Assembly: GCA_964446095.1 (NCBI GenBank)
Contig: CAYUNB010000001.1
Coordinates: forward strand, 1-36,773
Direction of reading: 5' to 3'
Origin: an uncultured Candidatus Saccharibacteria bacterium
GTDB lineage: Bacteria > Patescibacteriota > Minisyncoccia > Phycocordibacterales > UBA12445
DNA length: 36,773 bases
The position numbers were made by a program, and so were the translations under genes. The notes under the pieces were generated by a model. The model was given only the letters and a program-made list of their open reading frames with translations, had not been told where the DNA came from and did not search any database. This document shows, in pieces, positions 6,621 to 31,281 of this stretch. How positions within the stretch are numbered: position 1 is the first letter of the stretch; each line of letters opens with the position of its first letter.

Positions 6621-6656
6621 AACTATAAAAAAATCTCTCCATATGAGGAGAGATTT
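6621..6656 (-). terminator. Intrinsic terminator upstream of secA
   Basis: AAATCTCTCC (6631-6640) pairs with GGAGAGATTT (6647-6656). On the minus strand it is followed by TTTTTTATAGTTTT. Confidence 0.6.
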
Positions 6657-6670
6657 TTCTTAAGCGGTTA

Positions 6671-6757
6671 TTACCACTTCTTCTTGGCAACCTTCTTCTT
6701 AGCTGCCTTCTTCGGAGCCTTCTTCTTAGCTACTTTCTTCTTTGCCATTTTTTTCAT
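6671..6757 (-). CDS. Candidate 28-aa Lys/Ala-rich basic micropeptide
   Basis: Hand translation gives MKKMAKKKVAKKKAPKKAAKKKVAKKKW followed by a stop. The terminator at 6621-6656 follows it. It has no good Shine-Dalgarno site and is low in complexity. Confidence 0.3.
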   Translation of the reverse strand: MKKMAKKKVAKKKAPKKAAKKKVAKKKW

Positions 6758-6923
6758 TTTTTTCAATCGAGTAACCTACAACAATATTCGACCTTTAAAT
6801 TTTTTCAAAAAATTTTTTCAGAAAATATTGCTGCTAATAATATAATTATCTCGCAAACAAAATTAAACAACAATATTTTTTTGGGGATAACTTTTAAATT
6901 TTTAAAAAAATAAATCTATGAGT

Positions 6924-6969
6924 GGAAAATTTTTTTCTTTTTTTAAAAAAATATAAAAAAAAATTTTCC
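6924..6969. repeat. Inverted repeat enclosing a pure A/T tract
   Basis: GGAAAATTT (6924-6932) pairs with AAATTTTCC (6961-6969), with 28 nt of only A/T between them. Confidence 0.5.
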
Positions 6970-7030
6970 GCAGCGAAAGACTGACAAAAAAATATTCTGA
7001 GGTGGCTCAATCGCGCTGCGACAAAATAAA

Positions 7031-7060
7031 AAATCTCCGGAAAATTTCCGGAGATTTTTT
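7031..7060. terminator. Terminator-like hairpin with T/A runs on both sides
   Basis: AAATCTCCGG (7031-7040) pairs with CCGGAGATTT (7048-7057). It has TTTTTT downstream on the plus strand and TTTTATTTT downstream on the minus strand. Confidence 0.55.
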
Positions 7061-7068
7061 ATTTCATT

Positions 7069-7139
7069 CTGGAGTAGGATCAGCAGACGCTTACTCCAAA
7101 ACAAATATCATTTTGAGTGCTCTGCTGACCTTACTCAAG
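7069..7139. other. Long imperfect hairpin (about 19 stacked positions plus a 6-bp apical extension)
   Basis: CTGGAGTAGGATCAGCAGA (7069-7087) pairs with TCTGCTGACCTTACTCAAG (7121-7139), giving 16 pairs. The inner helix is GC..ACTC (7089-7096) with GAGTGC (7115-7120). Confidence 0.4.
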
Positions 7140-7203
7140 AACGAATCAGGTCAACCAGAACATTTATATTCTAAGTTAGGACAAAGAAAAATGCAACTCG
7201 CTC

Positions 7204-7324
7204 GGGACTCTAGATTTAGATGCAGAACGAGGAGAAGATGAGTATTGCGAGGAAGATGTACTTGGCAGTACATTGACGAACAAGTGGAATCTTCGACAAA
7301 GTTATGCGCTAAATCTAGAGTCCT
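7204..7324. ncRNA. Unclassified structured element, copy 1 (homolog at 30749..30868)
   Basis: The outer helix is 7205-7218 with 7310-7323 (14 bp). The inner helix is 7234-7239 with 7289-7294. The terminal hairpin is 7256-7262 with 7267-7273. Junction sequences are conserved and the helices covary relative to copy 2. The strand is undetermined. Confidence 0.55.
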
Positions 7325-7335
7325 AAAACATAAAA

Positions 7336-7365
7336 CCCGGCCGAAGCCGGGCTTTATGCGATATT
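7336..7365. terminator. GC tetraloop hairpin, terminator-like on either strand
   Basis: CCCGGC (7336-7341) pairs with GCCGGG (7346-7351) around loop CGAA. On the minus strand it is followed by TTTTATGTTTT, and on the plus strand by CTTTATGCGATATTTGTTTT. Confidence 0.5.
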
Positions 7366-7420
7366 TGTTTTGGAAAGCTCTTCAAAATAATGATTTATAA
7401 TGAAGATGCACTCGAATAGT

Positions 7421-7449
7421 ATATTAGCAAATGCCATTTTAAAAGTCAA
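7421..7449 (-). promoter_or_regulatory. Orphan sigma-70-like promoter pointing into the gene-free region
   Basis: On the minus strand: TTGACT (7449-7444), 17 nt, TAATAT (7426-7421). No ORF lies downstream of it. Confidence 0.45.
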
Positions 7450-7953
7450 GTGTTATGCTACTATGGGCCCATGGCGATGACAGCGAGGCAAAAAATAATC
7501 AGATTCCTAACTCCGGTAATATTACCCATTGTGAAAATCTACTGGGGAATATTCAAACCAGAAACCTACGGAGTAAAAGTAATTATTGAGAATAACGGAA
7601 AATTTTTATTAGTCAGAAACGCCTATGGAAGCAAGAGGTGGACCTTCCCCGGCGGTCGAATAGAAAAGAATGAGGCGGCGATAGCCGCAGCCGCAAGGGA
7701 GATCAGAGAGGAGGTGCAGTTAAATATTTCAAATCTAATTTTCATAGACCAAATCGTCTCAACGTCTGAAGGCAAAAGAGATAATGTTTCAATATTCCGC
7801 GCCTCAAGCGAATCGAGCGAGATTACATCCGATGAATTCGAGATCGAAGAGGCCGGCTGGTTCGCACCGGAGAATTTTCCAGAGATCAGCTTAATCGCAG
7901 AGAAGATCTGGCAGATTTATAAAAATAAAAATTCTACCGAATCCAACTCCTAA
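7450..7953 (+). CDS. NUDIX hydrolase
   Basis: The Nudix box is GGRIEKNEAAIAAAAREIREEVQL. The start is either GTG 7450 or ATG 7471. Confidence 0.85.
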   Translation: MLCYYGPMAMTARQKIIRFLTPVILPIVKIYWGIFKPETYGVKVIIENNGKFLLVRNAYGSKRWTFPGGRIEKNEAAIAAAAREIREEVQLNISNLIFIDQIVSTSEGKRDNVSIFRASSESSEITSDEFEIEEAGWFAPENFPEISLIAEKIWQIYKNKNSTESNS

Positions 7954-12010: not shown

Positions 12011-12030
12011 GTTACGAAAGCCTGCAAAAT

Positions 12031-12056
12031 TAATAAAAAATCCCGCTGAGCGGGAC
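12031..12056 (-). terminator. Intrinsic terminator (ends the candidate sRNA / ndk unit)
   Basis: TCCCGC (12041-12046) pairs with GCGGGA (12050-12055). On the minus strand it is followed by TTTTTTATT. Confidence 0.7.
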
Positions 12057-12188
12057 TCTTTATCGAGGTTACTTGAGATATTAAGCCCTAGTTTTTAGAC
12101 CAGGTGGGTGCCTTCGACACTCTGCCACGGCAGAATGAAAGTGAAGCTCCCTTGCATAAATATCTAGTTTAATATATCAAACAACCTC
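12035..12188 (-). ncRNA. Candidate ~150-nt sRNA: long imperfect hairpin with its own promoter and terminator
   Basis: The 5' arm GAGGTTGTTTGATATATTAAACTAG (from 12188 downward) pairs with the 3' arm CTAGGGCTTAATATCTCAAGTAACCTC (ending at 12065). A terminator follows. There is no ORF. Confidence 0.45.
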
Positions 12189-12194
12189 ACCCAA

Positions 12195-12222
12195 ATTATA
12201 ACTCCGCTACGGCTACATACAA
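12195..12222 (-). promoter_or_regulatory. Sigma-70-like promoter for the candidate sRNA
   Basis: On the minus strand: TTGTAT (12222-12217), 16 nt, TATAAT (12200-12195). The predicted start is near G12188, the first base of the helix. Confidence 0.45.
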
Positions 12223-30676: not shown

Positions 30677-30748
30677 ATATACCTCCCTATCCGGGATTAA
30701 AATAATATATAAAGTCTAGATAGTCAAGTTAAAATTAATGTTAAATTA

Positions 30749-30868
30749 GAACTTTCAAACTTGGATGCAGAACGCGGAAGAAACGAGGCTTACGAGGAAG
30801 ATGTACTAACAGTACATTGAGGAGTAACCGGAGTTTCTGACAATGTTATGCGCCAAGCTTGAGAGTTC
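30749..30868. ncRNA. Unclassified structured element, copy 2 (homolog of 7204..7324)
   Basis: The outer helix is 30749-30764 with 30853-30868 (16 positions, one G-U and one A-C). The inner helix is 30779-30784 with 30833-30838. The hairpin is 30801-30807 with 30811-30817. It abuts the stop codon of the DUF1761 gene. Confidence 0.55.
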
Positions 30869-31281
30869 TAACGCCAGACTCCGAGCACAAGACCAAATAC
30901 AACGAATAGAGTAAGCTGGTAGCCTGTCTGAATCAGAAAGCGCGACCAGGCCAGATGTTTCTTTTCGTTATTCCACATCGAGGCACCGGCAGTCGTCGGC
31001 AGTACGAAGCCGGCCCAGAGCCAGAGCGCGTGGCCCATAGCGCTGCCGACATTCAAAATTGATAAGTAGTACGCCAGCACCCACGCCTGGAAGAGCGTCA
31101 GTAGGAACTGAACCAAATAGAGCGGGCCAGCGGCCTTCCGCATCTCCTCCCGAGCCTTAGCATCATGCATGTCTGCGCCGATAATCTCCGCCCACTTCTT
31201 ACCAAAAAGGGTCCCGTACCAGACCATGCCGAGAATCATCGACAATACTCCGCAAGCTAAGACTGCCCAATAGTTGATCAT
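30868..31281 (-). CDS. DUF1761-family membrane protein
   Basis: MINYWAVLACGVLSMILGMVWYGTLFGKKWAEIIG and four TM segments are typical of DUF1761. Confidence 0.7.
   Translation of the reverse strand: MINYWAVLACGVLSMILGMVWYGTLFGKKWAEIIGADMHDAKAREEMRKAAGPLYLVQFLLTLFQAWVLAYYLSILNVGSAMGHALWLWAGFVLPTTAGASMWNNEKKHLAWSRFLIQTGYQLTLFVVFGLVLGVWR

Follow-up and report, generated by a model that had tools for sequence, protein, structure and literature searches.

Structured, RNA-like intergenic elements with repeat-like genome dynamics in Vogelbacteria-like Parcubacteria

The closest described systems and the two copies in the window

Dispersed extragenic palindromes are found in many bacterial genomes, ERIC/IRU, REP/BIME, BOX, RUP and Correia sequences being the familiar kinds. 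ERIC-like repeats are imperfect palindromes of about 120 nt that lie only between genes, occur as several diverged copies per genome, are present or absent at orthologous sites, have size variants produced by internal deletion or insertion, and would form a hairpin in any transcript crossing them. The element described here shares all of these properties. It forms an imperfect palindrome some 100-130 nt long that is confined to intergenic DNA, with several copies, with presence/absence polymorphism at orthologous sites and with internal insertion/deletion variants (the copy L017c and the remnant in L013; L numbers denote loci fetched from relatives). It differs from ERIC-like repeats in that no sequence similarity connects the two, its termini are the least conserved parts and its interior loops the most conserved, and its helices are heavily compensated. 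Furthermore, it has no target-site duplications, its orientation is constantly antisense, and its best-folding strand is not the mRNA strand.

Another comparison can be made with 6S RNA, 4.5S/SRP RNA and Y RNA. Like these, the element is about 120 nt long, has a helix joining its ends, forms a rod with conserved loops that look like protein sites, has paralogues, and lacks a dedicated terminator, implying processing. Unlike these, it has no Rfam match at E ≤ 10, its copies are much denser and it is dispensable in close relatives. Its apical loop is unconserved, in contrast to the GNAR loop of SRP RNA, and it has neither the central bubble of 6S RNA nor the tRNA-like domain of YrlA.

The layout also recalls attC sites: a conserved helix of 7 bp (GCAGAAC/GTTATGC), spacers left unpaired, another short helix, a variable distal part, a length within the attC range, and conservation of structure above sequence. 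However, against the attC R''/R' consensus RYYYAAC / GTTRRRY the element sequences GCAGAAC / GTTATGC miss two positions and one position, and the copies in L017 read GCAGTTC / GAAATGC and TATAATTC / GAAGTATG, the core AAC/GTT having covaried to TTC/GAA. The element differs further in an extra outer helix of 15-19 bp, the lack of an integrase in a Pfam scan of the window ORFs, and the lack of cassette arrays. Its two sites in the window are 23 kb apart among housekeeping genes, with a ribosomal-protein/secY cluster between them.

The family is not a new category; it is of the orphan bacterial RNA motif or the extragenic palindromic repeat kind. To our knowledge, regulatory RNAs are almost undescribed in CPR/Patescibacteria, whose genomes are tiny. 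A multi-copy, RNA-like element that is supported by covariation and obeys a strict placement rule gives a handle on the densely packed transcription units of these organisms. As an expressed RNP component it would represent a new orphan RNA class; as a cis repeat, it would be the first ERIC-like system in CPR that we know of. Either way, the covariance model can be used for annotating these genomes.

The window (the whole 36.8-kb stretch of DNA analysed) is one complete contig of cellular genome DNA. It carries secA, infC-rpmI-rplT, RNase J, ndk, map, adk, secY, ribosomal-protein genes and several DNA-repair genes, and neither tRNAs nor mobile-element genes were found within it. Judged by SecA, its closest relatives bear the names Candidatus Vogelbacteria or Parcubacteria. 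A first-pass annotation, made from the letters of the window, had pointed out a structured element present twice. Its end-to-end alignment of the two copies with a single 1-nt indel was reproduced, and blastn aligns them at 76% identity over 97 nt (E = 5e-14). The three blocks that it called invariant, ATGCAGAACG, GAGGAAGATGTAC..GTACATTGA and GACAAWGTTATGCGC, are indeed where it had placed them. The parts of the two copies are as follows.

7204-7324, plus strand: copy 1 (covariance-model score 136 bits, E 2e-33)
7205-7219/7309-7323, plus strand: P1 of copy 1, a perfect 15-bp helix
A7220, plus strand: bulged A
7221-7228/7301-7308, plus strand: P2, with the conserved mismatch G7225xA7304 inside
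7229-7233 (GAGGA) / 7295-7300 (GACAAA), plus strand: P2-P3 internal loop
7234-7239/7289-7294, plus strand: P3, GAAGAU/AUCUUC
GAGUA / GUGGA, plus strand: P3-P4 internal loop
7245-7248/7280-7283, plus strand: P4
7249-7254 (GAGGAA) / 7275-7279 (GACGA), plus strand: P4-P5 internal loop
7255-7261/7268-7274, plus strand: P5
7262-7267, plus strand: apical loop
30746-30871, plus strand: copy 2, a paralogue with the same five helices (127 bits; previously delimited as 30749-30868)
30746-30764/30853-30871, plus strand: P1 of copy 2, 19 nt, 89% paired

P1 of copy 2 abuts the stop codon (30868-30870) of a minus-strand DUF1761 gene. Both copies fold far better than expected by chance: their minimum free energies are -52.5 kcal/mol (copy 1) and -51.3 kcal/mol (copy 2), while shuffled sequences reach about -25 ± 3.3 kcal/mol, giving z = -8.2 and z = -8.3, and 0/200 shuffles fold equally well.

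Members of the family and selection on the fold

Four genomes supplied the six intact members of the family as gathered, to which a degenerate tandem copy and a disrupted remnant can be added. Members outside the window come from related Vogelbacteria-like Parcubacteria (CPR).

L003, 7254-7376, minus strand: intact member in a MAG, orthologous to the copy-1 site
L008, 1972-2094, minus strand: intact member at the copy-1 site
L017:6434-6557, minus strand: intact member L017a
L017:13765-13887, minus strand: intact member L017b
L017:13895-13985, minus strand: degenerate tandem copy L017c
L013: remnant, only the 5' and 3' ends of the element being left around an unrelated hairpin of ~165 nt

The three-block pattern GCAGAAC..GAGGAAGATG..GTTATGC gave one true homologue (L003) and three chance matches in 185,579 GTDB species genomes, a single chance match, eukaryotic-looking, in JGI metagenomes, and one chance match in IMG/VR, where a relaxed pattern gave zero. 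Exact patterns are blind to variants of the L008 and L017 types, hence the range of the family is underestimated by such searches. Further loci were reached via synteny of SecA, exonuclease and S8 homologues, followed by covariance-model search. A model built from four members (R1) detected the two diverged L017 copies at 61 and 57 bits (E about 1e-13), as well as the degenerate tandem copy. With a model of six members (R2) all six score 104-129 bits, and no additional members appeared when R2 was run over 214 kb of related loci with filters off. The R2 matches at 10-27 bits seen with filters off are generic terminator hairpins that match P1 on both strands; they are not members.

The earlier statement that the element belongs to no known family agrees with Rfam 15, which has no match in the window at gathering thresholds and none to the element at E ≤ 10, its riboswitch, ribozyme, SRP, 6S, tmRNA, RNase P, Y RNA and DUF3800-motif models being among those covered. 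Around both copies the latter threshold brings up only weak, terminator-driven matches outside the element. There is likewise no Rfam match at the elements of the member-bearing loci L003, L008 and L017. Phage, plasmid and E. coli collections contain no match to the element, blastn against 5,426 complete E. coli genomes, done with regard to ERIC/REP homology, gave zero matches, and nothing relevant was found in the literature on structured RNAs of CPR. The element family thus has no Rfam 15 entry and comes from a narrow, Vogelbacteria-like clade of Parcubacteria. One Rfam family besides a tRNA was seen across all fetched loci, and it is the only Rfam match in L017: a DUF3800-V RNA (RF02964, 56.9 bits) at L017 1465-1581 on the minus strand, beside a DUF3800 gene.

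The consensus fold of the six members is a single unbranched rod of five helices, P1 to P5. From the base upwards it reads as follows.

P1: 15-19 bp, then a bulged A
P2: UGCA-G-AAC / GUU-A-UGCG, with a G·A mismatch inside
Loop between P2 and P3: 5' GAGGA / 3' GACAAA
P3: 6 bp, then the loop GAGNN / NNGGA
P4: 4-6 bp, then the loop GAGGAA / GACGA
P5: 7 bp, with a variable apical loop on top

The three internal loops are purine-rich on both strands, and the GA/AG motifs abutting the helices resemble tandem sheared G·A pairs.

The outer helix deserves separate mention. It was described before as self-pairing in each copy, which it is, and as unrelated in sequence between them, which no longer holds once more members are aligned. 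P1 of copy 2 is 60-69% identical to P1 of L008, L017a and L017b, and the 8 bp of P1 next to P2 resemble RAAUYURG in all members. Since P1 sequences align across further members, P1 is the fast-evolving, compensated part of one homologous unit of ~120 nt. The same homology rules out the idea that a core was inserted into the loops of pre-existing hairpins, with P1 being host sequence.

Evidence for selection on the fold comes from the pattern of substitutions. In an alignment that was fitted to the covariance model and so is biased toward structure, 93.8% of 242 pair cells (41 pairs, six members) are standard pairs, compared with 77.5 ± 1.6% after column shuffling (0/500 shuffles reach the observed value), and double-sided changes occur in 27 of the 41 pairs, compared with 12.5 ± 2.4 in shuffles. 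Sliding the partner by 1-3 columns lowers pairing to 29-43%. An independent MAFFT/RNAalifold alignment of four members has 19/41 pairs compensated. Between the window copies, P3 is GAAGAU/AUCUUC in copy 1 and AGAAAC/GUUUCU in copy 2, i.e. four of six pairs are changed on both sides, and P4 shows a swap of G-C to A-U, both as first noted. P2 and P5 are identical in these two copies, yet they covary in L017, where AAC/GUU of P2 becomes UUC/GAA, UGCA/UGCG becomes UAUA/UAUG, and one A-U pair of P5 becomes C-G; in L017b the P2 mismatch G·A is turned into A·G. Copy 1 and L003 occupy the same orthologous site; their differences in P1 are compensated, and G·U and U·G in P4 correspond to G-C and U-A. 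The fold has therefore been maintained in situ. Covariance models, the check that had been proposed, thus led to further homologues with compensated helices, and the case for a functional folded RNA or folded single strand is strengthened by four more intact homologues that keep every helix through compensated changes. We have little doubt that this is a real family under structural selection.

One could still ask whether the element is a functionless, neutral relic that an old palindromic duplication left behind. L007, L009 and L010 lack it at the orthologous site, and degenerate copies exist, as such an origin would allow. Neutral decay, however, would break helices, and here pairing and compensation persist at the levels given above despite core identities of only 51-78% between non-orthologous copies; a relic is strongly disfavoured. 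A variant of this idea is that a short peptide beginning with MQN is encoded, because an ATG-led frame of 14-18 codons starts at the conserved ATGCAGAAC in four members. This frame, the only short ORF shared by the copies, lacks a Shine-Dalgarno sequence, is thrown out of register in L008 by a 1-nt deletion and in some copies ends 2 codons into P5. Substitutions track base pairs and not codons, which is unlike a small protein or a type I toxin and in line with the original view that the element is non-coding. We regard both the relic and its peptide variant as very improbable. The DNA-repair genes in the neighbourhood had also suggested that P5 (TGTAC-N-GTACA) could be a double-stranded operator resembling a LexA box; this was rejected, since its half-sites covary in L017 and are not spaced alike in all copies.

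Placement, strand and possible expression

At four independent loci the placement follows one rule: a gene ends, the element follows, and the promoter of the next co-directional gene comes after it, the modelled strand being antisense to both genes. Blocks A and B in the list are small-RNA-like units that are treated in the last section.

Copy 2: upstream, the DUF1761 stop codon; downstream, TTGACT-17-TATTTT and the exonuclease gene
Copy 1: upstream, the block B unit with terminator T2; downstream, TTGCAT-17-TAGAAT and the block A RNA
L017a: upstream, a HAD gene with a terminator; downstream, TTGACT-16-TATAAT and a 30-aa hydrophobic ORF
L017b/c: upstream, the secY stop codon; downstream, TGATATAAT, a 58-aa ORF and then adk
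7167-7196, minus strand: promoter-like site TTGCAT-17-TAGAAT beside the 5' end of copy 1, kept in 7/7 orthologous loci
30698-30727, minus strand: TTGACT-17-TATTTT, the promoter-like site of the exonuclease gene; the 5' end of copy 2 lies 18 nt away
7332-7355, strand not assigned: GC-rich hairpin T2 (CCCGGC-CGAA-GCCGGG), 8-12 nt past copy 1, with the better U-tail on the minus strand

Such an arrangement brings to mind a cis-acting extragenic palindromic repeat which, like ERIC, REP, BOX or Correia sequences, would work within sense transcripts (the minus strand of the window). It might stabilise mRNA 3' ends, serve as a processing site or insulate the next promoter against read-through, and its loops, pyrimidine-rich on that strand (UCCUC, UUCCUC), would then be sites for a protein or anti-Shine-Dalgarno-like sites. 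The element invariably sits in a gap between the end of one gene and the promoter of the following one, and faces the same way with respect to transcription; P1 begins at the stop codon in copy 2 and L017b, where there is no other terminator; and the multi-copy behaviour with gain, loss, tandem copies and nested insertion would suit a repeat. The complement strand also still folds, at -31 to -42 kcal/mol. It does so, however, less well than the modelled strand in five of the six members, the difference being 4-16 kcal/mol (modelled strand/complement: -52.5/-41.4, -51.3/-42.0, -52.1/-36.0, -38.2/-39.0, -45.9/-41.8 and -42.3/-31.0 kcal/mol). On the complement, A·C would stand in place of the conserved G·U pairs, and U·C mismatches in place of the tandem G·A motifs. 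Moreover, the hairpin is not followed by a U-tract, copy 1 and L017a already have a canonical terminator ahead of them, a simple stabiliser hairpin would have no need of conserved loop sequences, and there is no sequence similarity to the E. coli repeats. On balance we find action as a cis repeat of sense transcripts possible but rather unlikely.

Other features of the alignment point the same way with respect to strand. Wobble pairs are represented by 14 G·U cells, spread over 6 columns of which two are conserved, versus 4 A·C cells in 3 columns, an asymmetry that is modest when the two conserved G·U columns, both at helix ends, are counted as single events. Columns of internal loops and bulges are 87% purine on the modelled strand. 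Loops, G·U pairs and folding energies together make the plus strand of the window the likely folded strand.

The molecule that folds could also be DNA. A single strand or cruciform may be recognised by a recombinase or transposase, as with attC, REP/RAYT or IS200/IS605-like elements, and covariation would then be a requirement of propagation or recombination. The succession of P2, spacer, P3 and variable distal part recalls the R box, spacer, L box and variable structure of attC; presence/absence, tandem and nested-insertion behaviour would be natural for such an element; and orientation with respect to the inferred direction of replication is constant at 4/4 loci. The minus strand, however, is the leading strand (GC skew is negative on the plus strand and genes are on the minus strand), so the better-folding strand is the leading-strand template and is not exposed at the replication fork, which argues against a mechanism based on single-stranded DNA. 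The attC R-box consensus is missed, with AAC/GTT changed to TTC/GAA in L017, and no gene for an integrase, transposase or HUH protein was found in about 30 window ORFs or in the Pfam annotations of the fetched loci. Cassette arrays, target-site duplications and conserved termini are lacking, and the copies are old, non-orthologous ones being 51-78% identical in the core. A DNA-level element is improbable in our opinion, and RNA is probably, with somewhat more assurance than we attach to the choice of strand, the active molecule.

How could an RNA from this strand be produced? No conserved -35/-10 pair was found upstream of the element on the folded strand. The -10 elements of the neighbouring promoters, however, are all (4/4) of the symmetric form TAnnnTA, in which -11A and -7T are reciprocally paired on both strands. 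Such symmetric geometry has been reported for bacterial bidirectional promoters and divergent transcription (PMC10268837; see also PMC12825309). At the copy-1 site the -10 is TAGAATA, with the mirrored plus-strand TATTCT at 7167-7172, about 32 nt upstream of P1, as a possible source of transcription into copy 1; at the copy-2 site it is TATTTTA, with the mirrored TAAAAT at 30698-30703. Among the loci orthologous to the copy-1 site, a symmetric -10 is present in 4/4 that bear the element versus 1/3 that do not, a suggestive difference. The mirrored -10 is a weak, AT-rich signal. As for the other end, a terminator scan of both strands gave nothing at copies 1 and 2 or the L017 copies; the sequence that follows P1 is A-rich on the plus strand and mixed on the minus strand. 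With no U-tract after P1 on either strand, processing is needed to explain the 3' end of the element. At copy 1, the stem of hairpin T2 varies in sequence and yet pairs in every orthologous locus. Its sequence suggests that T2 ends the minus-strand block B RNA, and it may also stop plus-strand transcripts of the element.

The reading we prefer is that of a structured non-coding RNA whose copies behave like repeats in the genome and whose role we can only infer. The following chain of events can be suggested. The element would be transcribed antisense to its neighbours from the reverse face of the adjacent TAnnnTA -10, with a start 25-45 nt upstream of P1. The long P1 would then pair the 5' and 3' ends, so that the transcript is trimmed into a stable hairpin. 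Finally, the purine loops, P2 and the P5 stem would form a surface to be recognised by a partner protein or some other ligand, although no candidate partner protein is consistently near the element loci. The whole chain, including a trans-acting, protein-binding role of the end-paired hairpin RNA, is an explanation that we hold tentatively, at somewhat less than even odds. Counting against an RNA gene are copy density, loss in close relatives, the degenerate tandem copy and the nested-insertion remnant, all of which fit a selfish or cis repeat equally well.

A bolder suggestion, which we think doubtful, is that the family is a CPR-specific class of stable RNA, transcribed off the 'wrong' face of promoters that fire in both directions. 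Such an RNA could serve as a rod-shaped RNP scaffold or decoy, binding a conserved cellular protein through its tandem-G·A loops, and it could spread as a self-contained, promoter-adjacent module. If correct, RNA from a bidirectional promoter would couple divergent antisense transcription to a selected function, e.g. control of the neighbouring promoter or of the 3' end of the upstream gene.

Genome dynamics and neighbouring small-RNA-like genes

Copies are dense: two in the 36.8-kb window and three in 17 kb of L017, two of the latter in tandem. The copy-1 site, with its conserved flanks, holds the element in the window, L003 and L008, a disrupted form of it in L013 and none in L007, L009 and L010. 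The copy-2 site is rearranged in L011 and L018 and lacks the element there; L003 is excluded from this comparison as its contig ends inside the LTD gene. Core identity is 77% between copies 1 and 2, which bears out the earlier opinion that they do not stem from a recent duplication, and 73% within L017. The element tree is discordant with the SecA tree: the cores of copy 1 and L003 are 91% identical though the window is the SecA outgroup, and L008 has a P1 of the copy-2 type while its sister L013 (93% in SecA) has a remnant of the copy-1 type. This mismatch suggests conversion or replacement among paralogues, which is probable on these sequence grounds. In all, the family behaves like a dispersed repeat that evolves by duplication, tandem copies, loss and nested insertion, with selection keeping the fold.

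It was proposed at the outset that many near-identical copies with target-site duplications would make the element a MITE. There are no near-identical copies, no extra copies in 214 kb of related loci, and no direct repeat flanking any copy. The termini (distal P1) are the most variable part, and ends of the type TAGAAC...GTTCTA are found in some members only. The copies being old, without target-site duplications and without conserved termini, the element is therefore not a MITE in that sense.

Unrelated long hairpins and perfect palindromes (27-bp stems, 120-165 nt) fill equivalent intergenic spots in relatives: L013 2030-2180 (minus strand), L011 9794-9915 (minus strand), and L009 3987-4045 and 13689-13737. 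Each is a singleton among the fetched loci, and the one in L013 is nested in the element remnant. Long hairpins between genes seem to be characteristic of the clade in general.

The intergenic region of copy 1 contains at least two further conserved small-RNA-like genes, and other features were noted around it and elsewhere in the fetched loci.

7356-7449, minus strand: block B, small-RNA-like gene with a conserved TTGACT-17-TAnnAT promoter, 85-88% identical across seven relatives
7024-7196, minus strand: block A, small-RNA-like unit with a TTGCAT-17-TAGAAT promoter, 88-94% identical across relatives
~12030-12200, minus strand: small-RNA-like locus of ~150 nt between ndk and RNase J
6882-6890, minus strand: DnaA-box-like site
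6671-6748, minus strand: conserved 25-aa lysine-rich ORF (MAKKKVAKKKAPKKAAKKKVAKKKW) between the non-coding region and secA
7450-7953, plus strand: NUDIX gene between the non-coding locus and the AP endonuclease gene
L017 6667-6759, plus strand: 30-aa hydrophobic ORF (MTLRAKAFLAIGYALAYIVAGLLVAYSLCC), divergent from L017a

Block B consists of a hairpin, CAUCUUCA...UGAAGAG, then the single-stranded UCCAAAACAAAUAUC, then an intrinsic terminator with a covarying stem; it has no Rfam match. Block A has a 25-bp imperfect hairpin (7063-7145) and a terminator (7024-7064). The loop of this hairpin, GAUAUUUGUUUUGGA on the minus strand, is a 15-nt perfect complement to block B (7095-7109 versus 7360-7374), and a U-to-C change in L013 keeps the G·U pair between the blocks only if both are read on the minus strand. 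Judging by this complementarity, blocks A and B may be an interacting RNA pair. We also considered that a single large RNA (7030-7450) might have the element as an expansion domain, which is unlikely: the region consists of two separate minus-strand units, each with promoter and terminator, and copy 2 and the L017 copies are without those flanks.

The locus between ndk and RNase J recurs in relatives (L009 4097-4244, L015 9792-9962, L018 15836-15988; 85-88% identical). It has its own TATAAT promoter, a covarying hairpin (UUCUGCCGUGGCAGAG versus UCCCCCGCUUGCGGGG) and a terminator, and no Rfam match at the gathering threshold.

The DnaA-box-like site reads TTATCCCCA in the window and TTATCCACA in L003, L007 and L010, and lies upstream of the lysine-rich ORF and secA, beside a very AT-rich stretch (6860-6990). 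An oriC at about 6.9 kb is unsupported by gene orientation and GC skew. The lysine-rich ORF has its own terminator (6627-6660), which is followed by the promoter TGCTATAAT for secA. At its position the NUDIX gene is found in the window only, being absent from L003, L007, L008 and L013. The hydrophobic ORF in L017 has a Shine-Dalgarno sequence and a strong TTGACT-16-TATAAT promoter (11/12 matches); from its sequence it looks like a type I toxin or small membrane protein.
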